Source: Thermoflexales bacterium (GTDB lineage Bacteria > Chloroflexota > Anaerolineae > Fen-1058). From it: a DNA stretch of 34,254 nucleotides. The position numbers and the translations under genes are program-made. Positions 2,737-30,612 of this stretch are shown here, piece by piece (the stretch's first letter is position 1; every line of letters begins with the position of its first letter). Location of the stretch: the NCBI GenBank assembly GCA_041738395.1, contig JBGSPW010000064.1:64001-98254 (forward strand), in the 5' to 3' direction. The notes below the pieces were generated by a model. The model saw only the letters and a list, made by a program, of their open reading frames with translations, searched no databases and was not told where the DNA came from.

Positions 2737-2830
2737 TGAAAATCGGCACAAAACAGATCGAGCGGACGTGAGTGATCACGCCCGCTCGTTGTCTTTCAAC
2801 GCTCTTAAACCGCGTCCTCGCGGTTTGTTT

Positions 2831-4240
<1,410 letters not shown>

Positions 4241-4260: not shown

Positions 4261-4761
4261 TTACGGTTTGCCCACGCTGATCTCATCGTGGCCGATGGTC
4301 GCGTGGCAGCGCGTGCAATCTTCCAGTTCGGTCTGCCCGGCATGATTGATCTGCGCCACAAAATCGCTGTGGCAATACTGGCAGTTGTTCAGCGCCACCG
4401 TCTTGTTGAACGGCGTAATCTGGATCGGTTCGTGAAAGTTCTGCAGCGTGAACGCGGCGCTGTGATTGAAGCCGTTGAGCGCTTTGACGATATACTTATC
4501 CGGGAACGTGTGCGGAATGTGGCAGTCATTGCACGTGGCCACCGCGTGATGCGGACCGCGCGACCACGCATCGAACACATCGTTCATGATGTGGCAGTTG
4601 CGGCAGGCATTTGGATCGTCCGAGAGATACGATGTGCCTTCAGCGTAGGCAAAGGTAAACATGCCCAGACCGACTACGCCGCCGAACAACAGGGCCAGCA
4701 AGGTCCACACCTTCAATGGCACGGCCCGCTGCGGCCCGGCACTAGCCGGTGTCTGACTCAT
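4261..4761 (-). CDS. nrfH: Membrane-anchored tetraheme cytochrome c NrfH (NapC/NirT family), quinol-oxidising partner of NrfA
   Basis: 166 aa. N-terminal TM helix plus four CxxCH motifs (CRNCH, CNDCH, CQYCH, CTRCH). Located immediately upstream of nrfA on the same strand with a 20-nt gap. Confidence 0.9.
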   Translation of the reverse strand: MSQTPASAGPQRAVPLKVWTLLALLFGGVVGLGMFTFAYAEGTSYLSDDPNACRNCHIMNDVFDAWSRGPHHAVATCNDCHIPHTFPDKYIVKALNGFNHSAAFTLQNFHEPIQITPFNKTVALNNCQYCHSDFVAQINHAGQTELEDCTRCHATIGHDEISVGKP

Positions 4762-4770
4762 GAATCCTCC

Positions 4771-5619
4771 TTAGAACGCGACGATGATGATGGCCGCAAA
4801 CAACACCGCGTGAACGATCTCGATCACGCCCAACTTCGGCAAGCTCAGCGATTGCTTATCCTGCCAGCGTGTCGCGCCGATCAACACCTTCAACGTCATA
4901 GGCACGAACGCCAGCATCACCAGCGCCGGCACGGTTCCCGCCGTCAGCGCCACCAGCACAATCAAGATCGTCAGCACGATGCTTTGATACGACAGGCAGG
5001 CTTTGGCTTTCACCAGGCGCTCGCTCACCCGATCGGGCGCAGGCAGGCGCGGCTGCTCACGCACCTTTAATTTGATGTAGAACACGGTGCCGCCAAAGTA
5101 CAGCGCATTGACGATCCACAAGGCCAGCGCCGTCCCATCGAGCTGGCCGCTGGCCGTGTAATAAGCCAATGGTGCACCCAGCGCCAACCCGAAGATACCC
5201 GCCAGCTCGCCGGTGGCCGACATCTCTTTGCGTCGATCGACCAGCCACCAGTGATAGACGAGCAAGGCCGCGCCGATCGCGCCAAACCCGATCAGCGCGT
5301 ACAGCCGATCGAGAACCACCAACCAACCGCCAGAGATCGCCGCGATCGATCCGTAGACGATCGCCCAGCGGATCAGCCACGCCCGATCGGCCTGGGGCCA
5401 CTTCCGCGTTTTGATCACCGTGTCGATGGGAAAGCGCAGCATAAAGAGCCCCAACGCGGCAAGGATCAACCACACCGATCGCCACTGCCACATTCCCGCC
5501 ACGGCCAAACCGATGATCAACGGCACCACGAACATGGCCCAGGAGCCATGCTCTTTGGGCAGCGGGATACTTCGTGCCGATCGAGAGGATTGGTTGTCGC
5601 GCATCTGCAACTCACTCAA
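4771..5619 (-). CDS. YwiC-like integral membrane protein (about 8 TM helices)
   Basis: 282 aa. The N-terminal KEHGSWAMFVVPLIIG segment resembles the YwiC-like family N-terminus. Multiple hydrophobic helices. The start (TTG at 5619 or ATG at 5604) overlaps or abuts the stop of the upstream Zn-ribbon ORF, and the gene sits 9 nt upstream of nrfH. Confidence 0.55.
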   Translation of the reverse strand: MSELQMRDNQSSRSARSIPLPKEHGSWAMFVVPLIIGLAVAGMWQWRSVWLILAALGLFMLRFPIDTVIKTRKWPQADRAWLIRWAIVYGSIAAISGGWLVVLDRLYALIGFGAIGAALLVYHWWLVDRRKEMSATGELAGIFGLALGAPLAYYTASGQLDGTALALWIVNALYFGGTVFYIKLKVREQPRLPAPDRVSERLVKAKACLSYQSIVLTILIVLVALTAGTVPALVMLAFVPMTLKVLIGATRWQDKQSLSLPKLGVIEIVHAVLFAAIIIVAF

Positions 5620-5837
5620 CTGAATTTGATCGGGCCGTGGGAGTGTTTGATCTCACAGGTGGTGCGATCGCACTGGCCCACGCAGTCCAGCGGCAACGCG
5701 TGTTGAAACACCTGTCCGCAGGCATGACAACGCGCCGAAGTATCGTAACACCATACTTCGACTTCCGGCTCACCGCACTGGGGGCACGTCACGTAATCTG
5801 GAAAAGGATGCGGCGCATCATGACCTAACACAGGCAC
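5616..5837 (-). CDS. Small Cys-rich zinc-ribbon protein (73 aa)
   Basis: CPQCG...CHACG plus a second CVGQCDRTTC cluster. Its TGA stop overlaps the TTG start of the downstream YwiC-like gene (TTGA overlap), arguing for a real, co-translated gene. Confidence 0.5.
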   Translation of the reverse strand: MPVLGHDAPHPFPDYVTCPQCGEPEVEVWCYDTSARCHACGQVFQHALPLDCVGQCDRTTCEIKHSHGPIKFS

Positions 5838-5881
5838 GCTCCCGACATTAACCCAAGTTTAATCGATCTGCTATCGTTCAC

Positions 5882-5899
5882 GTATGATTTGGATCATAC
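5882..5899. promoter_or_regulatory. Palindrome GTATGAT-ttgg-ATCATAC; CRP/FNR-family-like site upstream of the nrf operon
   Basis: Perfect 7-bp inverted arms with a 4-nt spacer. The core ATGAT-N4-ATCAT is 4/5 per half-site to the FNR/DNR consensus TTGAT-N4-ATCAA. Centred about 55 nt upstream of the Zn-ribbon gene start (5837, minus strand). Confidence 0.4.
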
Positions 5900-5937
5900 A
5901 GCACACAGCAAAGCAGGCGGCCATCAGGCCGCCTGCT
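5895..5937 (-). terminator. Hairpin (11-bp stem agcaggcggcc / ggccgcctgct, loop atca) after the DUF4342 gene; possible terminator or attenuator
   Basis: On the minus strand it is followed by tttgctgtgtgctg (moderately U-rich). Sits between DUF4342 and the Zn-ribbon-ywiC-nrfHA unit. Confidence 0.35.
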
Positions 5938-5971
5938 GACAGAAAACTCAGGGTCACAGGGAGACGCGCTG

Positions 5972-6277
5972 CTATTCGGTGCGCTCAATCACGATGGTCA
6001 TCTTAGCCACCAGGGCCGCGGCAGCGCCGATGGCCGCCCACACCGGCAGCAGAACCACACCGACCACGCCAATGGTGATCGGTATTTCCAGTAACGTCTT
6101 ACCAGATTCATCTTTCAACACAATGCGGCGGATGTTGCCTTCATGCAGCAATTTCTTGACGACATCCAACACTTGCCCGCCCGTGACACTGAACTCTTCA
6201 GTGTGCGGCTTGTGATCTTGCGGCGGAGTGTCGGTCTGCGGTGCTTCGCTTTGAGGTGGGGTTTGTTCGTCGGTCAT
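5972..6277 (-). CDS. Small protein resembling the DUF4342 family
   Basis: 101 aa. The Pro/Thr/Gln-rich N-terminus is followed by VLDVVKKLLHEGNIRRIVLKDESGKTLLEIPITIGVVGVVLLPVWAAIGAAAALVAKMTIVIER, which matches my recollection of the DUF4342 core. A hairpin at 5912-5937 follows it. Confidence 0.5.
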   Translation of the reverse strand: MTDEQTPPQSEAPQTDTPPQDHKPHTEEFSVTGGQVLDVVKKLLHEGNIRRIVLKDESGKTLLEIPITIGVVGVVLLPVWAAIGAAAALVAKMTIVIERTE

Positions 6278-6398
6278 GATCTGCTCCTTTCAGGTGGAAT
6301 GAATATAGTATAACGTGAAAGAAAGCGCAGGGCAACTGCCCCAACGTATGATAGAATGGGAATCACTTGAACGCGGCCAGCGTCCTAGCTTCAGCCAC

Positions 6399-6458
6399 AG
6401 AAACCGGGTTTCTGCGTGTAGTCTGGCATTACGCCAGAAATTGAGAAACCCGGTTTCT
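6399..6458. repeat. 60-nt twin-palindrome element, copy 1: AGAAACCGGGTTTCT - 30 nt - AGAAACCCGGTTTCT
   Basis: The two 15-mers are exact reverse complements of each other, and each is itself a near-palindrome (GAAAC-N3-GTTTC). The spacer contains an inner hairpin tctggc-attac-gccaga. Lies in the divergent intergenic region between the DUF4342 gene and the 801-aa gene. Confidence 0.6.
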
Positions 6459-6598
6459 ATGAGTTCAGCACCTTATCTTCAACGCAGCTCCCCAACTAGA
6501 GCCGCACTCAAGTGCTTGAACTGGCTGACCGGCACGCCGTATCATAGCATGACAGTTCGTGATCCTGGTGATTATTCACATCGTTTGTTTTGCTCTCA

Positions 6599-10063: not shown

Positions 10064-10068
10064 ATCGG

Positions 10069-10128
10069 AGAAACCGGGTTTCTCCCCTTCAGACGTAATG
10101 CAAGATAACCCGTAGAAACCCGGTTTCT
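10069..10128. repeat. 60-nt twin-palindrome element, copy 2 (same 15-mers, 30-nt spacer)
   Basis: Identical terminal 15-mers to copy 1. The spacer is about 60% identical to the reverse complement of the copy-1 spacer and shares a gcattacg core. Lies between the ABC ATPase stop (10063) and the permease RBS (10142). Confidence 0.6.
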
Positions 10129-10152
10129 GTGACACTTGCTTGAGGAGCCAAC

Positions 10153-11209: not shown

Positions 11210-12886
11210 TTGAATACGATGCCTACTAACGCACTGACTGACCTTAATCACCAGCTCGATGGCTGGCTGCGGCGCTATCGCCTACAGCGTGCGGTGCGCT
11301 GGTCGCTGCGTGGCGCGGCACTTGCCTTAGGGGTGGCGCTGGTCATCACACTGATTGCCGTGCTGCGCGGCCTGTTGCTGCAAGGCGAGTTCATCACGCT
11401 GGCGATCGGCTTGATGGTGATCGGGACGATCAGCGCCGCAGCCGCCGGGTATCTCTGGCGGCCCGATCGGCTGGTGGCGGCCCGTTGGTTCGATCGACAC
11501 TTTGGGCTGCGTGAGCGGGTTAGCACTGCCCTAGAACTCGCTCACGCCCTGTCTGCGGAGCAGGGGCGCGCTGGGCGAGCCGATCGATCTTCCGGCGACC
11601 TCGCGCAACGCCAACTGCAAGACGCCGCCGCGATGGCGCAGCGCGTGAACGCGCGCCAACAACTGCCGTTGAAGATCAAGCGCATCGATGCCGTGTTGAC
11701 CGTCGGGTTGCTGGTGGCTGTCATGTTAGTGGCGTGGCGTGGTGAGTCGTTCTTTCAGCTGGCCGCGCAGACGCGCGCCGTGCAGCAGACCATCGCCGCC
11801 GAGGCCGCCAAGGTCGAGGCACTGCGTCAGCAGATCGCCACCGATCCCAACTTGACCGAAGCCCAACGGCAGGAAATGTTGCAGGCGCTGCAAGAAACAC
11901 AACAACAATTGAAAGACGCGCAGTCGCTGGAGCAGGCCACGGCGGTGTTGACGCGCGGCGAGAAAAAGTTCGAATCGTTGACGAATGCGCAGGCCGAAGC
12001 TCAAACCGAAGGGCTGCGCCAGGCCGGTCAGCGATTGGCGCAAGATGAAGGTAGCCCGCTGCAAGGCTTTGGGCAAAATCTGGCCGAAGGTGATTTTCTG
12101 GCCGCCGCCGAAAATCTGCGCAGCCTCGATCTGAGTCAGATGTCGGCTTCCGAAGCGGCGGCATTGGCCGATCAATTGGAACAGGCTGCGGAGGCCCTGC
12201 AATCTAGCAATCCCGCATTGGCCCAGCAGCTGCGTGCTGCCGCAGCTGCGGCGCGCAACGGTGATGCGCAAAAAGCGCAGCAGGCTTTGGATCAGGCCGC
12301 GCAAGCGATGACACAGGCCGCGCAACAAACCGCGCGATCGAACGTGGCGCGCCAGGCAGCGGCACAGTTGGGCCAAGGTCGTCAGCGCATGATCGCCGCC
12401 GGTCGCAGCGCTCAGAGTCAAGCAGCGCAAGGAGACCAAGCGGGACAGGGCGACCCAACGCAGCCGGGTTCAAATCAAAGTGGATCATCAACGCAAGGCA
12501 ATCCAAATGGCGGAGCGGGATCAGGATCGGGCAAAGGCACGGGCAACAGCGGCGACGCGCAAGGCCCCGAGGCCGGTGGCAAACCGATCGATCAAAACAA
12601 CGGCCCCGGCGATGGCGGCGAAACGCCCTACGAACCGATCTATGCACCGCAGCTTTTGGGCGGTGGCGAAGGTGATACGGTGACACTGCCCGGCAGCGGC
12701 GATAATGGCGGAGATGTAACCGGACAGAGTGGCGTCAATCCCGGCAGCGACACGCCGAGTCAAGTGCCGTACTCGCAAGTGTTTGCTCAATATGCCAACG
12801 CGTATCGACAAGCGATCGACAACGGGCAAGTGCCGCCGCAGCTGAAAGATTTGATCCGGCAGTATTTCAGTTCGCTGGAACCGTGA
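11210..12886 (+). CDS. Membrane-anchored coiled-coil protein with Ala/Gln-rich and Gly/Ser/Asn-rich low-complexity regions
   Basis: 558 aa. Two N-terminal TM helices and a third near aa 160. Long AQ-rich predicted coiled coil. Gly-rich disordered tract. Conserved-looking C-terminal 40 aa ending QLKDLIRQYFSSLEP. No family assigned. Confidence 0.7.
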   Translation: MNTMPTNALTDLNHQLDGWLRRYRLQRAVRWSLRGAALALGVALVITLIAVLRGLLLQGEFITLAIGLMVIGTISAAAAGYLWRPDRLVAARWFDRHFGLRERVSTALELAHALSAEQGRAGRADRSSGDLAQRQLQDAAAMAQRVNARQQLPLKIKRIDAVLTVGLLVAVMLVAWRGESFFQLAAQTRAVQQTIAAEAAKVEALRQQIATDPNLTEAQRQEMLQALQETQQQLKDAQSLEQATAVLTRGEKKFESLTNAQAEAQTEGLRQAGQRLAQDEGSPLQGFGQNLAEGDFLAAAENLRSLDLSQMSASEAAALADQLEQAAEALQSSNPALAQQLRAAAAAARNGDAQKAQQALDQAAQAMTQAAQQTARSNVARQAAAQLGQGRQRMIAAGRSAQSQAAQGDQAGQGDPTQPGSNQSGSSTQGNPNGGAGSGSGKGTGNSGDAQGPEAGGKPIDQNNGPGDGGETPYEPIYAPQLLGGGEGDTVTLPGSGDNGGDVTGQSGVNPGSDTPSQVPYSQVFAQYANAYRQAIDNGQVPPQLKDLIRQYFSSLEP

Positions 12887-13104: not shown

Positions 13105-14082
13105 ATGACCCAACCTCTTACCGTCGATCAATTCCGCGAACTTGCCACGAACATGGAAACCGAGATTGGCCGCGTCATCGTGGGACAAAACGAGGTAGTG
13201 CGCGGCGTGTTGATCGGTATTCTGGCGGGTGGACACGTGCTGCTGGAAGGCGTGCCCGGTCTGGGCAAGACGATGTTGATCCGTACGCTGGCGCAAGTGT
13301 TGGATTTGAAATTCTCGCGCATTCAGTTCACGCCCGATCTGATGCCCGCCGACATTGTAGGCACCGAGATTTTGATCGATCAAGACGGGCAGCGCGCCTT
13401 TCGTTTTCAAGCCGGGCCGGTGTTTGCCAATCTCGTGCTGGCCGATGAGATCAATCGCGCCACGCCCAAGACGCAATCGGCATTGCTGGAAGCGATGCAG
13501 GAACATTCCGTGACGGTGGCGCAGCAGACGTATCAACTGGAAGAACCGTTCTTTGTCATGGCGACGCAGAATCCCTTGGAGATGGAAGGCACGTATCCCC
13601 TGCCCGAAGCGCAGCTCGATCGGTTCTTGTTCAAGATCAATGTCCCCTTCCCTTCGGCGACTGAACTGGTGGAGATTCTGGCGCGCACGACGGGCAAAGA
13701 TACACCTGCCGCGCAGACTGCCGTCAGTGGCGCCGACATCGTGCGGATGCGCGATCTGGCGCGGCAGACACCCATCGCTTCACATGTTAGCGAATACGTT
13801 GCACGCCTGATCGTCGCTACGCATCCCGATAACCCCGAGGCGACACCGCTGGTGAAGCAATACGTCCACTATGGATCATCGCCGCGTGGTGGGCAGGCCA
13901 TCATCCTCGGCGCGAAGATCGTCGCACTGCTGGCCGAGCGTTACAACGTCGCGTTTGAAGACATCGCCGTCGTCGCGCCGTCGGCCTTGCGTCATCGCTT
14001 GATCTTGAACTTCGAAGGCTTGGCGGAAGGCGCGAGCGCGGATCGGATTGTGGCGGAGTTATTGGAAAAGGTAGCAAAGTAG
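13105..14082 (+). CDS. MoxR-family AAA+ ATPase
   Basis: 325 aa. Walker A GVPGLGKT, Walker B LADEINRA, sensor motifs. Length and motifs are typical of MoxR/RavA-like ATPases. RBS AAAGG 6 nt upstream. Confidence 0.9.
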   Translation: MTQPLTVDQFRELATNMETEIGRVIVGQNEVVRGVLIGILAGGHVLLEGVPGLGKTMLIRTLAQVLDLKFSRIQFTPDLMPADIVGTEILIDQDGQRAFRFQAGPVFANLVLADEINRATPKTQSALLEAMQEHSVTVAQQTYQLEEPFFVMATQNPLEMEGTYPLPEAQLDRFLFKINVPFPSATELVEILARTTGKDTPAAQTAVSGADIVRMRDLARQTPIASHVSEYVARLIVATHPDNPEATPLVKQYVHYGSSPRGGQAIILGAKIVALLAERYNVAFEDIAVVAPSALRHRLILNFEGLAEGASADRIVAELLEKVAK

Positions 14083-14115
14083 AAGCGGCAGTGCGTCTAG
14101 CCACCAGAAGCTGAT

Positions 14116-15039
14116 ATGACCCATCACGGCGTCCAGCGAATTGCTGGTTCGTTATTGATAGCAACGGTTCTTGCAGGGTGCATTTCGCCTGTGATACCGA
14201 CCTCGACCTCTGTCCCTGTCACTGTTGAGCCAACATGGCAACCAACACCAGCGATGCTTCCCACCGAGGCCATTCCTATTAAGATTGTAGATGGTTCTCA
14301 AGGTTCAGTAATGTCACCCGTTCATGGACAGCTGCTTGTGCGGGCTTGCGAGAAAGAAGCATATGACAAATGTCCCAGCGCCTACGAATGCGATCTCGGA
14401 TATGTCGATCTAGCCAACGCACATTTTGTCCGCGTGCAACATATCAGTGAAGAAGACCCATTTTGCGAGAGCCGGAAGACAGATTTAATCTGGGCACCAG
14501 ATGGAACACAATTTGTTTATCGTAGAGGATGGATTGGCTCAATTGACTTTATCGTGTATGGCGCTGATGGTACTCAAAAACAACCTCTGGGGAGCTTTTA
14601 TCTAAGCGGTGCGTTCTGGACACCAGACGGGCGTTATCTCATTGTCAAAACGGGTGTAGGACCAAATTCACAACCCGCTGTTGAATACACCGTGTATGAT
14701 GCCCTTTCATGGAAGAAGGTTTGTGTAGTTGCCTCTGGTAATGGGATGATATTTGTTGTCGGAGGACAATGTATAGTGCCACTGAAAGACGGTCGAGCAG
14801 TGTTTCTTAGCGGAACCAAGGGTGTTGAGATGGCTATATGCAATGATCAGGCAAATTGTCCCGGCAGCAATAAGCTTCGACCGATTGGATCATTCTCTGA
14901 CCAAACCTTTGACTCGACCCGTTATCAAGCCCAAATCGAAAATTACTGGTTACGGGTATTTGACAGTGAAAGCGGTGTAGCACGAACATATGTAATACCT
15001 GGGTATCGCGTGACCAGCATCGCCTGGTCGCCAAAGTGA
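14116..15039 (+). CDS. Lipoprotein with PD40/TolB-like beta-propeller repeats; compositionally foreign (low GC)
   Basis: 307 aa. Lipobox LAGC. Repeated W.PDG motifs (WAPDGTQFVY, WTPDGRYLIV, IAWSPK). The nucleotide composition is visibly AT-richer (roughly 48% GC) than the flanking genes (about 62%). Confidence 0.7.
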   Translation: MTHHGVQRIAGSLLIATVLAGCISPVIPTSTSVPVTVEPTWQPTPAMLPTEAIPIKIVDGSQGSVMSPVHGQLLVRACEKEAYDKCPSAYECDLGYVDLANAHFVRVQHISEEDPFCESRKTDLIWAPDGTQFVYRRGWIGSIDFIVYGADGTQKQPLGSFYLSGAFWTPDGRYLIVKTGVGPNSQPAVEYTVYDALSWKKVCVVASGNGMIFVVGGQCIVPLKDGRAVFLSGTKGVEMAICNDQANCPGSNKLRPIGSFSDQTFDSTRYQAQIENYWLRVFDSESGVARTYVIPGYRVTSIAWSPK

Positions 15040-15090
15040 GCAAACTGAGCACGACAATACGCTTCACGTATCACGTTTTACGTACCAATC

Positions 15091-15984
15091 ATGCTCTTCG
15101 ACGAAACCTCCCTCCGCAAACTTCAGCAACTGACCCTCGTCACGTCGCGCGTGCGAGCGGGCGCGCTGCGCGGTGAGCGGCGTTCACTCAAACGCGGCGC
15201 GGGATTGGAGTTTGCCGACTTCCGCGATTACGTCCCCGGCGACGATCTGCGCCGTGTAGATTGGAACGTCTACGCGCGGCTCGATCGACCGTACATCAAA
15301 TTACGCGAAGAAGAAGAAGACCTGGCCGTTCACATTCTGATCGATGCGTCGCAATCGATGGATTGGGGTGAAGGCTCGCAGCACAAATTTGCATTCGCGT
15401 TGCACCTGGCGGCGGGAGTCGGCTCGATCGCGTTGGGCACGGGCGATCGCATTTCAGTTGTCATGCTGAGCAAGCTCAAGGTGGACGACAGTCCACCGAT
15501 CACGGAAGTCTCACTCCGTGGTCAACAGTACCTGCTGCACTTGCTCAAATTTCTTGAAGCGCAGCAAGCGGCAGGCGCCACTAATCTGGATGCCGCCATG
15601 CACCGTTACCTCATCAAGCCGCGCCGTCCCGGACTGGTAACTTTGATTTCGGATTTGCTCTCGCCCAACGGCTATCAATCGGCCCTGAAGATGTTGCAAC
15701 AACGCGGACACGAAGTGGCAATCGTGCACGTCCTGTCGCCGGACGAAGTCGATCCACCGTTGGCGGGCGATCTCAAACTGATCGATGTTGAAACGGGCCT
15801 TGCACAAGAAGTCAGTTTGGACAGCGGACTGCGCACTGCGTATCGCGAGCGGGTGGAGGCATGGCGCAACGAAGCACAGACGTTTTGCCGCGCGCGCGGT
15901 TTACGCTATCTCGCCGTCGAAACCGATCGGGCGTGGGATGAAGTGGTGTTGTACGACATGCGCAAAGCGGGCATGGTGAGATAA
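15091..15984 (+). CDS. DUF58 domain protein (partner of MoxR ATPases; BatII-like)
   Basis: 297 aa. LEFADFRDYVPGDDLRRVDWNVYAR is the hallmark DUF58 motif. Follows moxR as in Bat/MoxR operons. Confidence 0.85.
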   Translation: MLFDETSLRKLQQLTLVTSRVRAGALRGERRSLKRGAGLEFADFRDYVPGDDLRRVDWNVYARLDRPYIKLREEEEDLAVHILIDASQSMDWGEGSQHKFAFALHLAAGVGSIALGTGDRISVVMLSKLKVDDSPPITEVSLRGQQYLLHLLKFLEAQQAAGATNLDAAMHRYLIKPRRPGLVTLISDLLSPNGYQSALKMLQQRGHEVAIVHVLSPDEVDPPLAGDLKLIDVETGLAQEVSLDSGLRTAYRERVEAWRNEAQTFCRARGLRYLAVETDRAWDEVVLYDMRKAGMVR

Positions 15985-16012
15985 AGATCCGGCGAACGCA
16001 GATTAAAAGTTA

Positions 16013-16130
16013 CTGCTCAGCCGTCATGCCCGAGTGCTTCTGTCGGGCATCCAGATTCACTGCTGACATGCCCTCTGGATTCCCGCTAGAAGCATGCGGG
16101 AATGACAGCGCCGCGCGACGGCTGAGTAGA
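16013..16130. repeat. MITE-like element: 13-bp terminal inverted repeats (ctgctcagccgtc / gacggctgagtag) enclosing two internal hairpins
   Basis: The TIR match is 12/13. Internal hairpins atgcccga-N8-tcgggcat and attcccgc-N8-gcgggaat, whose loops are reverse complements of each other. Located between DUF58 and the BatA-like gene. Confidence 0.45.
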
Positions 16131-16232
16131 TACGATTGAAAGGATTAACGCTGATATTTTTGGTATCTGCTTTTATCCGCGTTATCTGCGCGCTTCGCGT
16201 CTGCGTCCAAAAACAAGTTCGACCACAATAAC

Positions 16233-18107
16233 ATGAACTTACTCGCACCTGCCGCGCTAGCCTTGAGTGCGCTGGCGATCCCCATCGTCATCTTCTACAT
16301 GTTGAAGCTGCGCCGCCGCGAAGTGACGGTCTCGTCCACGCTGCTGTGGCAGATGGTGCTGCGCGATCGACAGGCCAACGCGCCGTGGCAGCGCCTGCGC
16401 CGCAACCTCTTGCTGCTGCTGCAACTGTTGATCCTTGCCGCGTTGATCCTCGCCCTCGCCCGACCGGCGATCAGCGTCCCCACGCTCGCCGCGGGGTCAA
16501 GCGTGATTCTATTAGATGCGTCGGCGTCGATGAATGCCACCGATGTCGATCCCTCGCGCTTTGAAGCGGCCCGCCGCGCGGCTCAAGCATTGATCGATAC
16601 GCTGCCTTCTGCCGCACCCGTGACCATCATCGTGGCGGGTCAACAGCCGCAAGTGATCGCTTCGGCGGAGACCGATCGATCGACGTTGAAGCGCGCGCTC
16701 GACGAAGCGCGGCCCACCAACGGCGCGACCGACTGGTCAGCCGCATTTGCGTTAGCCGCCGGCGCGCTCGGTCGCCAGATCGATCAACCGACGACGGTGA
16801 TCATCTCCGATGGCGGCCTGCCGTCGAATCTGCCACCTTTGCCCGGCGAAGTACGCTACGTCCCGATCGGCCAATCAAGCGACAACGTGAGTGTCTCGGC
16901 CCTGTCATTGCGACCCACCAAGAACGGCGCAGAGTTATTCGCCGGCGTCGCCAATCACAGCGACACGGATCGATCGGTCATCCTCTCGCTCTACTCCGAC
17001 GGCGCGCTGCTGCAAGCACAGCCGATCGATCTGACAGCAGGCGAGACGCACAATGTGGTGCTGCCCGATCTACCGCGTGACGCGGCCGTCTATCAGGCGG
17101 CCCTCTCGCGGCCCGATCAATCCACGCAGCCCCTTGATGCACTCTCACTGGATGATGCTGCTTTCGCCGTCAATAATCCGGCGGGGGCGCGGCGTGTCTT
17201 GGTGATCTCACCGGGCAACGTCTTTCTGGAACAATTGCTGGCCGCCATGCCCGACCTGCAAGCATTTCGCGCCCTGCCCCAAAAAGACGGAACGGTGCAA
17301 ATGCCCACGGACGAATTCGATCTGTACATCTTCGATGGATTGGTGCCCGACGAACTGCCGTTCAAGCCGACGTTGTTCATCAATCCGCCGCAGAATTCGG
17401 TACTGCGCATCGATGGCGTCTTCAGCAACACGACCAACGCCCGCGTGATCGATTCGCCCGTGACGCGCGATGTGAATTGGAGCAACGTGCACGTGCGCAA
17501 GGCCAAACACATTACTCCACCGCAGTGGGCCAAGACGTTGATCGATTCAGAGGGCGGACCGTTGGTCGTCGCGGGCGACACCGGTGTGCGGCGCGTGGGC
17601 GCGATCACGTTCGATCTGCACGATTCTGATCTGCCGCTGCAAGTGACCTTTCCGATCTTGCTGGTCAACCTGATCAACTATCTCGCTCCGGGCCGATCGT
17701 TCAACGCACCTGATGGCGTGCGTCCCGGCGAGAGTTTGATCATCCGACCGGACGCAGCCGTGAGCACAGTCGCCATCGCGTCGCCGTCCAATCAGGTATA
17801 CACGGTGCGGCCCGCCGAAGGCACGGTCATCTTCAAAGACACCGGCGAGTTAGGCGCGTATGCCATCACGTCGATCAGCGGCGATCAGCAAACGGTCGAT
17901 TACTTCGCCGTGAACCTGTTCGAGCCGGCCGAGTCCAACCTCCGCCCGGTGGAAGCGATTCGGATCGGGCAAAGCCAGATTTCAGCGACACCGGCCACTG
18001 AGCAAGGCTGGCAGGAATGGTGGCCGTGGCTGGCGGCGCTGGCGCTGTTGATCTTGTTGATCGAGTGGTGGGTGTATCACGGGCGGCAGCGGGTAAAGAG
18101 GAATTGA
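16233..18107 (+). CDS. BatA-like protein: N-terminal double-TM anchor plus von Willebrand factor A domain, C-terminal TM
   Basis: 624 aa. The N-terminus LAPAALALSALAIPIVIFYMLKLRRREVTVSSTLLWQ matches the BatA/aerotolerance N-terminal double-TM domain. VWA MIDAS motif DASASM. C-terminal hydrophobic helix WWPWLAALALLILLIEWW. Confidence 0.85.
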   Translation: MNLLAPAALALSALAIPIVIFYMLKLRRREVTVSSTLLWQMVLRDRQANAPWQRLRRNLLLLLQLLILAALILALARPAISVPTLAAGSSVILLDASASMNATDVDPSRFEAARRAAQALIDTLPSAAPVTIIVAGQQPQVIASAETDRSTLKRALDEARPTNGATDWSAAFALAAGALGRQIDQPTTVIISDGGLPSNLPPLPGEVRYVPIGQSSDNVSVSALSLRPTKNGAELFAGVANHSDTDRSVILSLYSDGALLQAQPIDLTAGETHNVVLPDLPRDAAVYQAALSRPDQSTQPLDALSLDDAAFAVNNPAGARRVLVISPGNVFLEQLLAAMPDLQAFRALPQKDGTVQMPTDEFDLYIFDGLVPDELPFKPTLFINPPQNSVLRIDGVFSNTTNARVIDSPVTRDVNWSNVHVRKAKHITPPQWAKTLIDSEGGPLVVAGDTGVRRVGAITFDLHDSDLPLQVTFPILLVNLINYLAPGRSFNAPDGVRPGESLIIRPDAAVSTVAIASPSNQVYTVRPAEGTVIFKDTGELGAYAITSISGDQQTVDYFAVNLFEPAESNLRPVEAIRIGQSQISATPATEQGWQEWWPWLAALALLILLIEWWVYHGRQRVKRN

Positions 18108-18174
18108 TAATTGCTGAATGCTGATTGTTGATCGACCAACCGTCACGTATCACGCATTACGTTTTACGTTCATT

Positions 18175-21042
18175 ATGCATTTCACGACACCGCTTCTTCT
18201 ACTCTTACTCATCCTCCTGCCGATCATCATCCTGATCGGCAAGCCGGTGCGCGGATCGGCGCGGCGGCGCGAAATCCTCGCGTTGGGGCTGCGGATGATC
18301 ATCGTGGGGTGTGTGATCCTCGCGCTGGCTGGATTAGAGATCGCGCGCCCTTCCGATCAACTGGCGGTCGTGTTTCTGATCGACGCCTCCGATTCGATGT
18401 CGGATGAAGCGAAAGGGCTGGCGACGGATTACGTGCGGCAGGCTCTGCGCCACATGGGGCCGGACGATCAAGCGGCCATTGTCGTGTTCGGCGGTGAGGC
18501 GCTGGTGGAACGCGCCATGTCGTCTTCACGCGAACTCACTTCGCTCACCTCGGCGCCCAACACGGGACAGACCAATCTGGCCGATGCGATTCGCCTGGGA
18601 TTGGCGCTGTATCCGGCGGGCGCGGCGCGGCGCATGATCATCCTATCGGACGGCGCACAAACGATCGGGGATGCCGAGGAAGCCGCACGCTTTGCGGCCG
18701 ACAGCGGCGTGGAGATCAGCACGCTGCCCTTCGTGATGCAGCTCGGCTCGGAAGCCCTCATCACTTCCGTAGAAACGCCGGCGCGTTTGCGGCAAGGCGA
18801 ACGCTTCGATCTGCGTGTCAGCATCGACTCAACGCAAGCGATGCCCGCTCAGCTGCGCGTGCTGGTCAATGGACAAGTGGTGCACGAAGCCAGCTATCGC
18901 CTCAACCAGGGTCATCAAACGATCAGCATTCCATTGACGGCCACTGAACCGGGCTTCACGCGCTACATCGTGCAGATCGATCCACCGCAGGATCACGCGT
19001 ATCAAAACAATGAGCTGGCCGCCATCGCGCAAGTGTTGGGCGAGCCGAAGGTCTTGGTGGTGTCGCTGCCCGAGGGCACGCCCCTGCCCAACGGCGAGGC
19101 GCGCCCCGCTGAAGCCGATGCCCTGCTGCGCGCGCTGCAAGCCGCCAACTTCAACGTGGAAACGGCGCGGCCGGCGCAGCTGCCTTCGGATGTGGCGACG
19201 CTGGCTGATTACGCCTCGGTGGTGCTGGTCGATGTGCCTGCGCGCGAATTGTCGACGCGCCAGATGGAAGCGCTGCGCAGCTACGTGCGTGATCTAGGCG
19301 GCGGCCTCGTCACGATCGGTGGACCCACCAGCTATGGCGTGGGCGGCTACTACAAAACCCCGCTCGAAGATGCGCTGCCCGTCGAGATGCAGATCAAAGA
19401 CGAACAGCGCCGCCCGTCATTGGGTCTGGTGTTCATCATCGATCATTCCGGCAGCATGGGCGAGTTGAGCGGCGGCGCGACGAAATTGGAGCTGGCCAAG
19501 GAAGCGGCGGCTCGATCGGTGCAACTGTTGATGCCCAACGATCGCGTCGGCGTGATCGCGTTCGACGACGTCGCCAACTGGGTCGTGCCCATGACCGAGT
19601 TGTCCGATCCGTCTGGCGTGATCAACCAGATCGGCACGATTCGCATCGGCGGCGGCACTGATATTTATGGCGGCGTGCTGGCGATGTCGAAAGTGCTGCC
19701 CGACGATCCGGCCAAAGTAAAGCACGTGATTCTGCTCACCGATGGCGGTGCTGATCCCCACGGCATTCCTGAACTGGTGCGAAAACTGCACGACGAAAAC
19801 AACATCACCCTGACGACCGTGGGTGTGGGCCGCGATGCCGCGCCGTTCTTGCCCAGTCTCGCGGAAATCGGTGGTGGGCGTTATCACTTCGCCAAGGATC
19901 CCGGATCGATTCCCAGCATCTTCACCGAAGAAACGACACTCGCGACGCGTTCATACATCGAAGAAGGCGAGTTCTTTCCTAAGCAGGCCGCGCCCTCGCC
20001 GCTGTTGAACGGCATCACACAAGCGCCGCCGTTGTATGGCTATGTCGCAACATCGGCCAAAGACGCCGCGCAGACCATCCTCGTGTCGGCTAAAGATGAT
20101 CCGGTGTTGGCGGCGTGGCAGTATGGCCTGGGCAAAGCGGTGGCCTTCACGTCGGATGCCACGGGCCGTTGGGCGCGCGACTGGGTCGATTGGGATCAGT
20201 TCCCGTTGTTCTGGGGACAAGTGGTGCGTTACACCATCGGCGATCCGAACGCGTCCGCGTTGAACGTGAGTGTGGATCAGCAGGGCGATTCAGCCAAGGT
20301 GATCGTCGATGCGCGCGGCGCGAACGGCGACTATCTCAATGGTTATACCCTTAACGGCAACATCGTCAATCCCGATGGATCAGCTCAACCGATCGAGTTA
20401 CAGCAGACCGCCCCGGGTCGTTACGAAGGATCGTTCCAGCCGCGCGATCAGGGTGCGTACGTCATCGGCGTGGCAGGACAATCGCCCGATGGTGAAGTGT
20501 TGAACGAGAAAGCGGGTTGGGTGTTGTCGTACTCGCCCGAATATCGCAACCTCGAATCGAATCCTGATGCACTGTATCGCTTGACGCTGGCGGCGAACGG
20601 GCAGGTTGCGGCCAGCGATCCCGCCGAGGCCTTCGCGCATACGCCCGCAGGGCGCGCCGCGCCGCTCGCCACACGGCCGGCGTGGCCGTGGTTACTACTG
20701 ATCGCGGCGCTGCTGCTCCCCTGCGATGTCGGCGTGCGGCGCTTGGCCTTCGAGTGGCGTGACGTGCAAAAAGCGTGGCGGGCGATCGGGACGAAGTGGC
20801 AAGTGAAGCGCGCGGCGCAAGCAGCCCTGCCCGCCCGATCGGAACGCATGGCGACATTGTTCGATGCCAAGCAGCGCACCCGCGTCGAACGCGTGGAGCG
20901 CGCGGAACCGATCGAGCCGCCGCCAGCCGATCGGGAAGAGACAAAGCCGCCTGCGCCTCAACTCGATCGATCCACCACAAGCAAAGACCCCACCACAACC
21001 ACCTCGAGCTTGCTAGAAAAAAAGCGCGCCCGGCGAAAGTAG
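18175..21042 (+). CDS. Double VWA-domain membrane protein (BatB-like), with a charged K/E/R-rich C-terminal tail
   Basis: About 955 aa from ATG 18175 (MHFTTPLLLLLLILL). The ORF-track start at 18118 is less likely. Two VWA domains with MIDAS motifs DASDSM and DHSGSM. N-terminal and C-terminal TM helices. Terminal tail EKKRARRK. Confidence 0.8.
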   Translation: MHFTTPLLLLLLILLPIIILIGKPVRGSARRREILALGLRMIIVGCVILALAGLEIARPSDQLAVVFLIDASDSMSDEAKGLATDYVRQALRHMGPDDQAAIVVFGGEALVERAMSSSRELTSLTSAPNTGQTNLADAIRLGLALYPAGAARRMIILSDGAQTIGDAEEAARFAADSGVEISTLPFVMQLGSEALITSVETPARLRQGERFDLRVSIDSTQAMPAQLRVLVNGQVVHEASYRLNQGHQTISIPLTATEPGFTRYIVQIDPPQDHAYQNNELAAIAQVLGEPKVLVVSLPEGTPLPNGEARPAEADALLRALQAANFNVETARPAQLPSDVATLADYASVVLVDVPARELSTRQMEALRSYVRDLGGGLVTIGGPTSYGVGGYYKTPLEDALPVEMQIKDEQRRPSLGLVFIIDHSGSMGELSGGATKLELAKEAAARSVQLLMPNDRVGVIAFDDVANWVVPMTELSDPSGVINQIGTIRIGGGTDIYGGVLAMSKVLPDDPAKVKHVILLTDGGADPHGIPELVRKLHDENNITLTTVGVGRDAAPFLPSLAEIGGGRYHFAKDPGSIPSIFTEETTLATRSYIEEGEFFPKQAAPSPLLNGITQAPPLYGYVATSAKDAAQTILVSAKDDPVLAAWQYGLGKAVAFTSDATGRWARDWVDWDQFPLFWGQVVRYTIGDPNASALNVSVDQQGDSAKVIVDARGANGDYLNGYTLNGNIVNPDGSAQPIELQQTAPGRYEGSFQPRDQGAYVIGVAGQSPDGEVLNEKAGWVLSYSPEYRNLESNPDALYRLTLAANGQVAASDPAEAFAHTPAGRAAPLATRPAWPWLLLIAALLLPCDVGVRRLAFEWRDVQKAWRAIGTKWQVKRAAQAALPARSERMATLFDAKQRTRVERVERAEPIEPPPADREETKPPAPQLDRSTTSKDPTTTTSSLLEKKRARRK

Positions 21043-28043: not shown

Positions 28044-28943
28044 CTACTTCAGCGTTTGCAGATAGGCGATCAAATCGGCCAGGTCTTGCGCCGACATCAG
28101 GTTGGTCAGGCCCTCGGGCATCACCGATTTGCCATTCGCCTGGAACGTTGGAGCGTCGGGAACAATGTACACATTCGGCTGCTGCATGCTTTCTCGGATG
28201 TATTGCAGAGCCGTCTTGCCCGGCTCGCGGGTGGCGGCGCGATCGGCAATGCCCGCCAATGACGGGCCTACTTTGATCTCGCCCGCTATTAAGGAATGAC
28301 AGGCCGTACAAGAAGCATTGGTCTGACTGGCCTGCTTCTCTTCTTGCGCAAACAATTTCTTACCGCGTTCGGCATCACCGGCCGGCAGTGCGGTGTTCAC
28401 ATCCGTGCCCGCTGCGTCAAACTCAACCACCTGAGCCTGACCGGCTGTCTCACCCCAGGCCGTTACAAAGTTGACGATGTCTTCCACTTGATCGGTCGTG
28501 AGCGGGCCGCCATAGGGCTGACTCCAGGTGGGCATGCGCTGCGGAAAACCACCCTGCTCGCTGGCCCACGCCGACTCGATCGGCCGGCCGGCCGCAACCG
28601 TCAAGCGGATGAAATCCTTGACCGTTCCGCCAAACCCACCGAGCATTGATTTGATCTGCGGGAAGTGCTTCGTGAACAAATCCGGGTTCAGGTTCGGGCC
28701 TTTGCCCGGAATGCCTTCGCCGTTCTTGCCGTGACACGTGGAGCAGTTACCCAGATACAGCAGCGCGCCCTGCTCAATCGATCTACCCAGGATAGCCCGT
28801 TGCTCCACCTGCATCCGGCCAGTGCCGGGTTGAGTGGGCGTCGTCTGCTGATCGGGCAAGATGCCTTCATTCAACAGCACAACGCCCGTTGCGACAAAGA
28901 GAATGATAAACAACACGGTGCCGAGGAAGATTTTGCTTTGCAT
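28044..28943 (-). CDS. Membrane-anchored diheme cytochrome c (bc-complex cytochrome c subunit, QcrC-like)
   Basis: 299 aa. N-terminal TM anchor. Two class-I heme c motifs, CSTCH and CTACH, each followed downstream by a candidate Met ligand. Immediately downstream of the cytochrome b gene. Confidence 0.85.
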   Translation of the reverse strand: MQSKIFLGTVLFIILFVATGVVLLNEGILPDQQTTPTQPGTGRMQVEQRAILGRSIEQGALLYLGNCSTCHGKNGEGIPGKGPNLNPDLFTKHFPQIKSMLGGFGGTVKDFIRLTVAAGRPIESAWASEQGGFPQRMPTWSQPYGGPLTTDQVEDIVNFVTAWGETAGQAQVVEFDAAGTDVNTALPAGDAERGKKLFAQEEKQASQTNASCTACHSLIAGEIKVGPSLAGIADRAATREPGKTALQYIRESMQQPNVYIVPDAPTFQANGKSVMPEGLTNLMSAQDLADLIAYLQTLK

Positions 28944-28962
28944 AGTTGCCTATCTCACTTTG

Positions 28963-30612
28963 TTATTCGCCACCGGCTGAGTAGGTGCTGTCTTTGCTGA
29001 CGAAGGTATCGCTGAAGAAGCCCGGCTGACCACTCACTGGATCGATCGGCTGCTCATCCCAGTGAATCGCCAGCGTGAGCTGCTTCAGGGTCGGCTCGCC
29101 CGGCAGTCCTTGCGCCTCTTCAATCTTCAATTCGGCGTACAAGTTGGTGTAACGAACTTCCTGGCCATTCAACACCTGAACGGGCGGCACCGCAGCCACC
29201 GAGGCCGCCAGCTCTTCCATGACCTTTTGCAGCTCAGGCGCATTGTCCGGCACACCGCCCATTTCGTCTTTGGTGCTCCACGTGCCCACGAGCATTTGAT
29301 CAAACGGAAGCGAGCGGAGGGGACCGGCCTGTTCGCCCGGCATATACTCAAAAGCGATTTCGATCTGCGGTGCCGTGGACACGGCGAAGCCCGGCGTGCC
29401 CATGTACGACGAGATCACCAAGATGCCGATGATGCCGAACATGGCTGCCAGCGCAAGGCGACGATCGCCATAGCGTCGGCTGGGGTTGTAGTCCAGATAC
29501 GGCCACAACATCAGGATGCCGATCAGAATCGTCGGGACGATGACGCCCCACAGGGCCTTATCGCCCAGCTTAAGCCAGCCCTGAACAAACAGGAAATACC
29601 ACGGAGCCACCGTGTGCAGCGGCGTGCTGCTCGGATTGGCCGCGTGCTCCAGCGGGGCGTGATACAGGTTCAACGCAATCGGCACCACCAGTGCGACCAT
29701 CAAAATGCCAAACCACACCATTTCGTTGGTGAAGACATCGGGCAGGAACGGCACACGCTTGTCCTGTGAGACCTTGCGCGCTGTATCCTCGCCAATCTGC
29801 TCTAGTTCCGGCGGCAGCGAGTGGCCGTATCGCACCACCTTGTAGTAGTGGACAAAGATGAACAGAATCGCCACCAGCGGCAGTGCGAAGACGTGCAGCA
29901 AGTAGAAACGCAATAGACCGGCTGCCCCCAGATCAGGCCCGCCTTTCAACAGCAGAGCGACAGCCTTACCGACCTCGGGTGGAGGAGCCGCATCGGCCAT
30001 CGACGCGCCGATTGTCACCGCCCAGTAAGCCAATTGATCCCACGGCAGCAAATAGCCGGTATACGACAGGCCAATCGTCACCAACAACAAGATAACACCC
30101 GTGGCCCACGTAAACTGGCGCGGCTTCTTATACGATCCGGTGATGAAGGTCCGGCCCATGTGCAGCCAGACCGCGACCACCATCAACTCGGCGGCTAGAC
30201 GGTGTATATCGCGCACGAACTGGCCCATGGGCACATTGCTCAAAATCTTGAGCATGTTGTTGTAAGCCACACCGGGCGCCGGCGTGTAGTAGACCATCAA
30301 GAACAAGCCGGTCATGATCTCGACAAAGAACAACAGGGTGCTGAGCATGCCCAGGCGGAACGTAGGGTAAAACTTGGTGACCGCTTCGTGATAGAACGAC
30401 GGCCAGATGTGGAAGATGGCGCTTTCTGTATGCGGCTTCACCCGTGGATTGGGTTTGCCCGCCGGATCGCCGCGCAGGATCGAGCGGAGGTCGTTGATAT
30501 TCAAGCCGGTCGTGAGGCGCGTGACCGTATCGTCGGCCCGCAGATACACGGTCCTAATCAGACCGTGTTCTTTGATCATTTTACGCCAGGTAGCGAGTGG
30601 CTCAGGAGTCAT
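28963..30612 (-). CDS. Cytochrome b (b6 + subunit IV fused type) of a bc complex, with N- and C-terminal extensions
   Basis: 549 aa. Conserved His ligands in helices, the LPWDQ and PEW-like motifs of cytochrome b6, and a subunit-IV-like C-terminal half. An extra hydrophilic tail of about 150 aa. The start overlaps the Rieske stop by 4 nt. Confidence 0.9.
   Translation of the reverse strand: MTPEPLATWRKMIKEHGLIRTVYLRADDTVTRLTTGLNINDLRSILRGDPAGKPNPRVKPHTESAIFHIWPSFYHEAVTKFYPTFRLGMLSTLLFFVEIMTGLFLMVYYTPAPGVAYNNMLKILSNVPMGQFVRDIHRLAAELMVVAVWLHMGRTFITGSYKKPRQFTWATGVILLLVTIGLSYTGYLLPWDQLAYWAVTIGASMADAAPPPEVGKAVALLLKGGPDLGAAGLLRFYLLHVFALPLVAILFIFVHYYKVVRYGHSLPPELEQIGEDTARKVSQDKRVPFLPDVFTNEMVWFGILMVALVVPIALNLYHAPLEHAANPSSTPLHTVAPWYFLFVQGWLKLGDKALWGVIVPTILIGILMLWPYLDYNPSRRYGDRRLALAAMFGIIGILVISSYMGTPGFAVSTAPQIEIAFEYMPGEQAGPLRSLPFDQMLVGTWSTKDEMGGVPDNAPELQKVMEELAASVAAVPPVQVLNGQEVRYTNLYAELKIEEAQGLPGEPTLKQLTLAIHWDEQPIDPVSGQPGFFSDTFVSKDSTYSAGGE

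Follow-up and report, generated by a model that had tools for sequence, protein, structure and literature searches.

The cytochrome c nitrite reductase genes nrfH and nrfA are preceded, in a stretch of 34,254 nucleotides (nt) from a Thermoflexales bacterium (contig JBGSPW010000064.1; the whole stretch is referred to here as the window), by a gene for a Cys-rich zinc-ribbon (Zn-ribbon) protein and a gene for a YwiC-like membrane protein of the PF14256 family. This arrangement raises the question of what these two proteins do at an nrfHA locus and whether they are a membrane partner of NrfHA that had escaped description, as had been proposed in a preliminary description of the window. The reading that we favour, at a probability of about 0.6, is that the four genes form one operon with a Crp/Fnr-dependent class II promoter, and that the first two genes, referred to here as the cassette, are a portable unit of an N-oxide regulon with a general, non-redox accessory function. 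It is unlikely that the cassette encodes a subunit specific to NrfH.

The Zn-ribbon and YwiC-like genes are tightly packed with nrfHA

Five co-oriented open reading frames (ORFs) lie on the minus strand in the order DUF4342, Zn-ribbon gene, YwiC-like gene, nrfH and nrfA (Table 1). As the preliminary description had it, the two cassette genes share the strand of nrfHA and are closely spaced with it, and the gaps of 134 nt between DUF4342 and the Zn-ribbon gene and of 9 nt between the YwiC-like gene and nrfH are as it gave them. A single conserved promoter-like element precedes these four genes. The gap before nrfH reads TAA-GGAGGATTC-ATG from stop to start and includes the ribosome-binding site (RBS) GGAGGA. 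By contrast, its 2-nt overlap of the first two genes was imprecise: the alternative TTG start of the YwiC-like gene at 5619 (282 amino acids (aa), ORF 4771-5619) gives a 4-nt overlap (TTGA) with the Zn-ribbon coding sequence, and the ATG at 5604, which is favoured by database gene calls and by the ortholog alignment (MRDNQ.. versus MRENK..), gives a gap of 11 nt. For the Zn-ribbon gene, the likelier start is a GTG at 5831 (71 aa), which has the RBS GGGAG 7 nt upstream; the orthologs begin with ML(G/T). Within the unit, the genes are separated by 11 nt (with the TTG start, by a 4-nt overlap instead), 9 nt and 20 nt, and RBSs are present.

The YwiC-like protein matches PF14256 with 83.1 bits (cutoff 25; E 2.6e-23), and PF14256 was present in all 120 YwiC homologues among the matches listed. 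A database of 90%-identity clusters contains 317 YwiC homologues, and 1655 representatives of 50%-identity clusters match; for the Zn-ribbon protein, 56 homologues were identified. Conservation of both at the protein level indicates that these small genes are real.

The downstream genes encode a tetrahaem NrfH and a pentahaem NrfA. NrfA contains five CXXCH haem motifs, the first of which, the active-site motif, is CANCH; CXXCK is absent. CXXCH-type NrfA variants are known. NrfA scored below the NCBIfam equivalog cutoff (332.6 versus 595), and no gene for a haem lyase (nrfI or nrfEFG) was found elsewhere in the window.

A Crp/Fnr-type box at fixed spacing precedes the Zn-ribbon gene

Upstream of the Zn-ribbon gene lies a TGA-N6-TCA palindrome of the Crp/Fnr type followed by a -10-like hexamer (Table 1). 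The region was extracted from every related locus with a Zn-ribbon gene, and the palindrome is kept in register in 33 orthologous loci with 30 distinct sequences. In 30/30 distinct promoter sequences, aligned without gaps, a TAnACT hexamer lies exactly 22 nt downstream of the ATGAT-N4-ATCAT box, while the spacer sequence drifts. If the TAnACT hexamer is taken as the -10 element, then the palindrome is centred at approximately -41.5 relative to a transcription start that is predicted from this hexamer only, as is typical of class II promoters that Crp/Fnr proteins activate.

The same ATGAT-N4-ATCAT box precedes two further genes in sister loci, i.e. a gene for a 360-aa membrane protein (L004, L007, L058, L059 and L076; loci are designated by L numbers) and a NirK-like gene (L005, L007, L058 and L059). 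A related box, TGTGAC-N4-GTCAC (TGTGA-N6-TCAC type), is present just upstream of the YwiC-like gene, or of the small gene that precedes it (smallCys24, see below), in ~19 more distant loci. Moreover, Crp/Fnr genes are located near the cassette in L005, L009 and L057; the gene of L057 is at 11846-12559.

In five loci (L005, L007, L058, L059 and L076), the -10-like hexamer of the Zn-ribbon promoter has a further palindrome, of the TGTGA-N6-TCAC type, immediately 3' of it, which suggests an additional operator.

The 3' end of the unit is probably marked by the terminator-like hairpin downstream of nrfA. A second, GC-rich hairpin between the DUF4342 stop codon and the palindrome probably terminates transcription of DUF4342. 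It had a fold z-score of only -1.4, computed on a stretch that lacked the end of the 3' arm, has a weak T-tail and was missed by a consensus terminator scan; at the same place after DUF4342, the orthologous loci L002, L005 and L046 contain hairpins with clear T-runs. Together, the spacing of the genes, the promoter-like element and the hairpins suggest that the Zn-ribbon gene, the YwiC-like gene, nrfH and nrfA are one transcription unit.

DUF4342, which encodes a protein with a C-terminal hydrophobic segment, is found upstream of the Zn-ribbon and YwiC-like genes in most loci of the Zn-ribbon type. We considered DUF4342 as a member of the operon and rejected it because the terminator-type hairpin separates it from the Zn-ribbon gene and because it lies upstream of the promoter element. 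A promoter-like site for DUF4342 is present at 6335-6307. In total, DUF4342 is syntenic with the cassette and is probably transcribed separately from its own promoter to its own terminator.

Table 1. Genes and sequence elements of the nrfHA locus in the window, and Zn-ribbon genes of nos clusters in other loci
Feature	Position	Strand	Description
DUF4342	5972..6277	-	101 aa; PF14242, E 8.6e-26, 90.3 bits (cutoff 25)
Probable terminator of DUF4342 (GC-rich hairpin)	5912..5937	-	11-bp stem AGCAGGCGGCC/GGCCGCCTGCT, loop TGAT; between DUF4342 stop and palindrome
Crp/Fnr-type box (TGA-N6-TCA)	5884..5897	-	Palindrome ATGATCCAAATCAT; sole exact match in the window
-10-like hexamer	5856..5861	-	TAAACT, 22 nt downstream of palindrome; predicted transcription start near 5849
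Cys-rich Zn-ribbon protein	5616..5837	-	73 aa; Pfam zinc-ribbon matches all sub-threshold
YwiC-like membrane protein	4771..5604	-	277 aa, ATG at 5604; PF14256
nrfH	4261..4761	-	Tetrahaem NapC/NirT-family quinol dehydrogenase; TIGR03153, 155.5 bits (cutoff 134.2)
nrfA	2831..4240	-	Pentahaem cytochrome c552 nitrite reductase; PF02335, E 1.9e-143
Probable end of unit (terminator-like hairpin)	2759..2788	-	13 pairs, 9 G-C, T-rich tail; 43 nt past nrfA stop
nos-type Zn-ribbon gene, L055	8001-8318		
nos-type Zn-ribbon gene, L133	6001-6291		
nos-type Zn-ribbon gene, L134	6001-6372		

The cassette is conserved while the downstream genes are exchanged

A scan with the YwiC alignment of one genome per GTDB species gave 53 loci, and a metagenome scan gave 69 more; tblastn searches with a set of neighbour proteins were used to classify these loci. 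Where the YwiC-like protein is at least 64% identical to that of the window, the Zn-ribbon gene is always located upstream and DUF4342 usually is, while the downstream genes vary. The five-gene arrangement of the window recurs in nine further independent loci of the Anaerolineae/Thermoflexales type (L002-L005, L007, L057, L061, L064 and L072). Thus, the synteny is not an accident of one genome, an outcome on which the preliminary description had made its proposal depend.

In six sister loci (L009, L058, L059, L071, L093 and L104), DUF4342, the Zn-ribbon gene and the YwiC-like gene are followed not by nrfHA but by a gene for an octahaem cytochrome that resembles hydroxylamine oxidoreductase (HAO). 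This protein, as encoded in the stretch 7855-10067 of L058, is N-terminally anchored, is 435 aa long and has 8 CXXCH motifs. It matches PF13447, and among the NCBIfam models it scores best with hydrazine dehydrogenase (HAO family), far under the model cutoff. The octahaem gene is followed by a gene for a 301-aa polytopic membrane protein without a family match, and a NapC/NrfH-type gene is absent from all six loci. Among the loci of the Zn-ribbon type, L066 is an exception in which restriction/PIN genes follow the cassette.

Conversely, four nrfHA loci, in which NrfH is 53-67% identical to that of the window by tblastn (56-67% by BLASTP), are plain nrfH-nrfA pairs that lack YwiC, Zn-ribbon and DUF4342 genes within 5 kb; two of the four are labelled Chloroflexi or Anaerolineae metagenome-assembled genomes (MAGs). 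The existence of closely related NrfHA without the cassette, and of the cassette without NrfHA, argues against a dedicated partner of NrfH. The cassette-free loci leave room for a looser functional link between the cassette and NrfHA.

Upstream of several cassettes (L058 2741-5924; L004, L005, L007, L059 and L076), we detected genes for the 360-aa membrane protein, which has a faint similarity to NnrS, two COX1-fragment-like proteins of ~135 aa, and a NirK-like copper protein. The 360-aa protein and the COX1-like fragments also recur beside the YwiC-like gene in nos-type loci.

Two kinds of irregular loci were noted. In L046 (10001-10090) and L119 (6001-6090), the YwiC-like gene is cut to ~31 codons, which come after DUF4342 and a shortened Zn-ribbon gene and before unrelated sequence; here the cassette has decayed or has been rearranged. 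In L090 (645-1094), an ORF starts NrfH-like (MSQTPASAG..VPLRVWALLALLFGGV) and runs on as an unrelated protein, leaving nrfH truncated; this locus is probably a chimeric metagenome contig.

More distant YwiC-like genes lie in nos, ECF-sigma and NO-stress contexts

YwiC-like proteins of 46-64% identity (Caldilineaceae-type loci and others) are encoded in two settings and often have the smallCys24 gene upstream. In the first setting, the gene comes after nosD/F-nosY-nosL, a gene for a protoglobin-ThiS protein, and genes for cytochromes c, and is followed by genes for an FAD oxidoreductase, a cupin, the 360-aa membrane protein and the COX1 fragments. In the second setting, it lies between a Crp/Fnr gene and a pair of genes for a thioredoxin and an extracytoplasmic function (ECF) sigma factor.

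In Gracilibacillus dipsosauri (L043 6808-14942), a YwiC-like protein of 26% identity is encoded. On one side of its gene lies that of the di-iron repair protein ScdA/RIC, with a COX1/COX2 pair farther out; on the other side lies the gene for a second hemerythrin protein, beyond which a Crp/Fnr regulator and NrdG-NrdD are encoded. This region of a cultured member of the Bacillota looks like a nitric oxide (NO)-stress/anaerobiosis island.

In total, the informative contexts comprise nitrite ammonification, HAO-like octahaem cytochromes, NirK-like and NnrS-like genes, accessory genes of N2O reductase, RIC/hemerythrin genes, and Crp/Fnr regulators together with their boxes. An anaerobic or N-oxide response is common to all of these, supporting that the cassette is portable and belongs to an N-oxide regulon of the Crp/Fnr type. 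Among the roles that the preliminary description had suggested, a link to the response to NO or N-oxides fits the neighbourhood data best; a role dedicated to NrfH is not supported.

The YwiC-like protein has a predicted UbiA-like fold without family-wide Asp-rich motifs

An AlphaFold2 model of the YwiC-like protein, based on an alignment of 17 sequences, shows a membrane protein with nine helices (predicted local distance difference test score (pLDDT) 72.6; predicted template modelling score 0.70), i.e. with the number of transmembrane (TM) helices of the UbiA fold. In a Foldseek search of this model against the PDB, prenyltransferases of the UbiA superfamily were among the top five matches. 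The match of the sequence to the Pfam UbiA family PF01040 is weak (E 1.4e-4; 21.7 bits, below the gathering score of 34.2), precomputed PF01040 matches were present in 17/120 YwiC homologues among the matches listed, and a search of the alignment profile against PDB sequences returned nothing even at E up to 10. Thus, the link to UbiA is based on the predicted fold and the sub-threshold Pfam match. An approximate E. coli UbiA-like query gave no significant match to a UbiA gene in the 1.17 Mb of fetched loci.

Before TM1, the YwiC subfamily has an invariant N-terminal P-x-E-H-G-x-W motif (P16, E18, H19, G20 and W22), and these residues are 81-92% conserved among 134 representatives of the PF14256 family. 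Residues conserved family-wide among these representatives are E18, H19, G20, W22, P145, W163, Y176, P235 and G259. The first Asp-rich motif (N/D-x-x-x-D-x-x-x-D, end of TM2/loop 2-3) is absent: the TM2/loop 2-3 region reads RFPIDTVIKTRK, and the segment tested for the motif is RFPIDTVIKTRKWPQADR, in which D61 is replaced by Ala in close relatives. At the place of the second Asp-rich motif (D-x-x-x-D), loop 6-7 contains an invariant D191-R-V-S-E195, which is confined to the YwiC subfamily and is not conserved family-wide; no Asp reaches at least 60% conservation among the 134 representatives.

Moreover, no signature of haem binding, of a dihaem-histidine arrangement or of a quinol dehydrogenase was found in the YwiC-like protein. 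A role as a quinol dehydrogenase or as a haem-based electron carrier is unlikely because the protein has no CXXCH motif and because H19 is its sole His conserved family-wide; this candidate function was rejected. As neither conserved Asp-rich Mg-diphosphate motifs nor a dihaem His pattern were seen, the YwiC-like protein is probably neither an electron-transfer subunit nor a canonical prenyltransferase. By the positive-inside rule and by analogy to UbiA, the conserved basic loops and the N terminus are predicted to be cytoplasmic.

The Zn-ribbon protein contains two conserved Cys knuckles

The Zn-ribbon family has the motif PFPDYxxCPxCGEPEVEVWC-x6-CHxCG..H..C..C, in which C18, C21, C30, C37, C40 and C52 are invariant. 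Two knuckles, C18-P-x-C21-G and C37-H-x-C40-G, are invariant in the family and are of the zinc-ribbon/rubredoxin-like type, with a metal content that is predicted. An AlphaFold2 model has four short strands (pLDDT ~80 in the core and 66.8 overall). As the protein has neither a TM segment nor a signal peptide, it is taken to be cytoplasmic.

A second subgroup with LPLPDPFPDY in the N-terminal part is encoded at the end of nosZ-(unknown)-nosD-F-Y-L-cytochrome c clusters (Table 1), where its gene is back-to-back with a Crp/Fnr gene and has no YwiC-like gene nearby (L055/L056, L133 and L134).

A distinct small protein, smallCys24, is conserved 1-57 nt upstream of the YwiC-like gene in Caldilineaceae-type loci (L016 9746-9973 and ~20 other loci). 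It has the motif CLNCxRPExxxPLVxLRxxGxxxWICxQCLPxLIHxPxxLAxKL, and no Pfam or NCBIfam match was found for it. An hhalign comparison of smallCys24 with the Zn-ribbon family, made with alignments that carried untrimmed upstream sequence, gave a non-significant probability of 1.7%.

A proposed role of the cassette and the alternatives

We propose that a Crp/Fnr-family activator would drive the class II promoter ahead of the Zn-ribbon, YwiC-like, nrfH and nrfA genes, and that the cassette would belong to an anaerobic/N-oxide (NO, nitrite, N2O) regulon of Anaerolineae-type Chloroflexota, behind which nrfHA would have been placed in this clade. The YwiC-like protein would be a non-redox accessory with a non-catalytic or non-canonical UbiA fold that binds an isoprenoid-type lipid, a quinone or a similar hydrophobic ligand in a UbiA-like cavity and acts at the cytoplasmic face alongside the soluble Cys-rich Zn-ribbon protein. 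In this way, the cassette would support or protect membrane respiration under exposure to N-oxides or NO generally and would not dock specifically to NrfH.

Several points weigh against this proposal. Both the co-transcription of the four genes and their activation by a Crp/Fnr-family protein are read from sequence features, and no Crp/Fnr gene was found anywhere in the window. The YwiC model is of moderate confidence, with a pLDDT of 52-65 in the C-terminal third, and the ligand and role suggested above are drawn solely from fold and context. In the most distant neighbourhoods of YwiC-like genes, mostly from Actinomycetota and with partial matches, there is little N-oxide signal: among 16 such loci, hemerythrin was encoded in 3, COX1 in 2 and Crp/Fnr in 2. 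Finally, the cassette lies directly upstream of multihaem reductases of the nitrite/hydroxylamine type in 16 loci, which could reflect a specific service to those enzymes.

This last point leads to an alternative that we regard as improbable, i.e. that the Zn-ribbon and YwiC-like proteins form a two-component module of N-oxide respiration that handles a haem, quinone or isoprenoid ligand specifically required by NrfA or HAO-like reductases. In such a module, the UbiA-fold protein would have lost its prenyl-diphosphate chemistry, and the cassette would stay upstream of whichever multihaem enzyme fills the slot.

A related and similarly improbable explanation is that the cassette serves periplasmic multihaem cytochrome c reductases generally, for instance with the YwiC-like protein as a UbiA-fold handler of haem or another cofactor during maturation. 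Haem O synthase, a member of the UbiA family, binds haem and provides an analogy. In support of this explanation, a multihaem reductase comes next in all 16 Zn-ribbon-type loci with a readable downstream region and an intact YwiC-like gene, bar L066; NrfA has CXXCH in the active site in a locus that lacks the lyase genes; and the N-terminal E-H-G-x-W of the YwiC-like protein holds a conserved His and a conserved Trp. However, YwiC-like genes are present in nos/cupin/FAD-oxidoreductase, ECF-sigma and Bacillaceae NO-stress loci that have no adjacent multihaem cytochrome, and related nrfHA loci manage without the cassette. Moreover, the general cytochrome c maturation system is responsible for attaching haem to CXXCH, and this attachment is periplasmic while the conserved YwiC motifs are predicted to be cytoplasmic.

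No better placed is the possibility that the two proteins are a sensory or regulatory pair, in which a Zn or Fe-S centre of the Zn-ribbon protein would react to NO, O2 or the redox state, the YwiC-like protein would be a membrane anchor or a sensor of the quinone state, and the pair would modulate adjacent Crp/Fnr or ECF-sigma regulators. Crp/Fnr genes are indeed located within ~5 kb of the YwiC-like gene in L005, L009, L018, L019, L024, L025, L041, L043, L057 and L089 and immediately next to that of the Zn-ribbon protein in the nos-type loci L055, L133 and L134, genes for an ECF sigma factor and a membrane thioredoxin adjoin the YwiC-like gene in L018, L020, L024, L026, L089 and L094, and besides the four ribbon cysteines, three or four further Cys and one or two His are conserved in the Zn-ribbon protein. 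However, adjacency to regulators is equally explained if the cassette is their target, and the boxes are located upstream of the cassette; furthermore, a DNA-binding or anti-sigma domain is absent, the Zn-ribbon protein is encoded without YwiC in L055, L133 and L134, and many YwiC-like genes have no small Cys-rich gene upstream.

Least likely of all is that the Zn-ribbon and YwiC-like proteins are the dedicated partner of NrfHA put forward in the preliminary description (in assembly, in channelling quinone to NrfH or as a structural subunit): the tight coupling right before nrfH, the order conserved in nine further loci and the binding of polyprenyl or aromatic quinone-like substrates by UbiA-fold proteins, which makes binding of quinone conceivable, speak for it, but it conflicts with the four cassette-free nrfHA loci, with the six loci in which the cassette precedes an octahaem system without NrfH, with the YwiC-like proteins of 46-64% identity in nos or ECF-sigma contexts, which have no nrf genes beside them, and with the Gracilibacillus protein in its NO-stress context, and NrfH itself is already the quinol dehydrogenase of NrfHA.

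Other features of the window

A gene cluster for a MoxR AAA ATPase, a DUF58 protein and BatA/VWA proteins of the aerotolerance type is located at 13105-21042. A Rieske/cytochrome b/dihaem cytochrome c complex is encoded on the minus strand at 28044-31229; a cytochrome b/c pair is also encoded close to the cassettes of L058 and L059. A paired palindrome, AGAAACCGGGTTTCT followed ~30 nt on by AGAAACCCGGTTTCT, is present in two copies (6398-6459 and 10068-10129), both of which are intergenic, upstream of a DUF4350 gene (6686) and of an ABC-2 permease gene (10153), respectively. These four matches compare with 0.03 expected by chance, and they may represent paired operators or a small repeat element.

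Comparison with known systems

In the nrfHA loci of Wolinella succinogenes and Desulfovibrio vulgaris, as in the window, nrfH is followed closely by nrfA, and the models TIGR03153 and PF02335 are matched. The locus described here differs from these in that it has the Zn-ribbon and YwiC-like genes as a head unit, has CXXCH instead of CXXCK in NrfA, lacks nrfI/J and the nrfEFG lyase genes, and has the Crp/Fnr-type box upstream of the Zn-ribbon gene and not of nrfH. For the annotation of dissimilatory nitrate reduction to ammonium in Chloroflexota MAGs, it is relevant that nrfHA and the HAO-like octahaem gene can replace each other as the cargo of one promoter cassette.

Bacillus subtilis ywiC, which we take to be the founding member of PF14256, presumably lies between narK-fnr and arfM-narGHJI. 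It shares with the gene described here the Pfam family and the association with anaerobic or N-oxide loci and Crp/Fnr regulators, with L041 and L043 as the only Bacillaceae loci that we examined. The Bacillaceae proteins are ~26% identical to the YwiC-like protein of the window, and their genes lie among nar or NO-stress genes and lack a small Cys-rich gene upstream, whereas here the YwiC-like gene comes second in a predicted nitrite-ammonification operon. In the literature searched, YwiC was not linked to nitrite or nrf, its only two biological mentions were entries in tables, and DUF4342 was not mentioned.

Compared to the UbiA superfamily (UbiA, MenA, UBIAD1, DGGGPS, DPPR synthase and haem O synthase), the YwiC-like protein matches PF01040 below the gathering score, lacks the first Asp-rich motif and has at most D191xxxE195, in its subfamily only, in place of the second. 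With the NnrS/NnrU-type proteins of NO-responsive (NnrR/Dnr) regulons, it shares that it is polytopic and defined by co-location and co-regulation behind Crp/Fnr-type boxes, and the 360-aa membrane gene with faint similarity to NnrS has the same type of box in sister loci; however, fold and family differ from those of NnrS/NnrU, and a pattern of haem or copper ligands is not evident.

Altogether, the nrfHA core is ordinary, and what is new is the cassette, its interchangeable downstream cargo and its conserved promoter architecture, to which the fold model adds a predicted UbiA-like YwiC without conserved catalytic motifs. PF14256 is a widespread family without an assigned function, and the locus adds to it a predicted UbiA-type fold that lacks conserved catalytic aspartates, a regulatory signature in the form of Crp/Fnr-type boxes in at least two subfamilies, and a physiological context of nitrite ammonification, HAO-like octahaem cytochromes, accessory genes of N2O reductase and genes for NO-stress repair. 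Thus, a membrane protein of unknown function near nar becomes the subject of hypotheses that are testable, including in the genetically tractable Bacillus.

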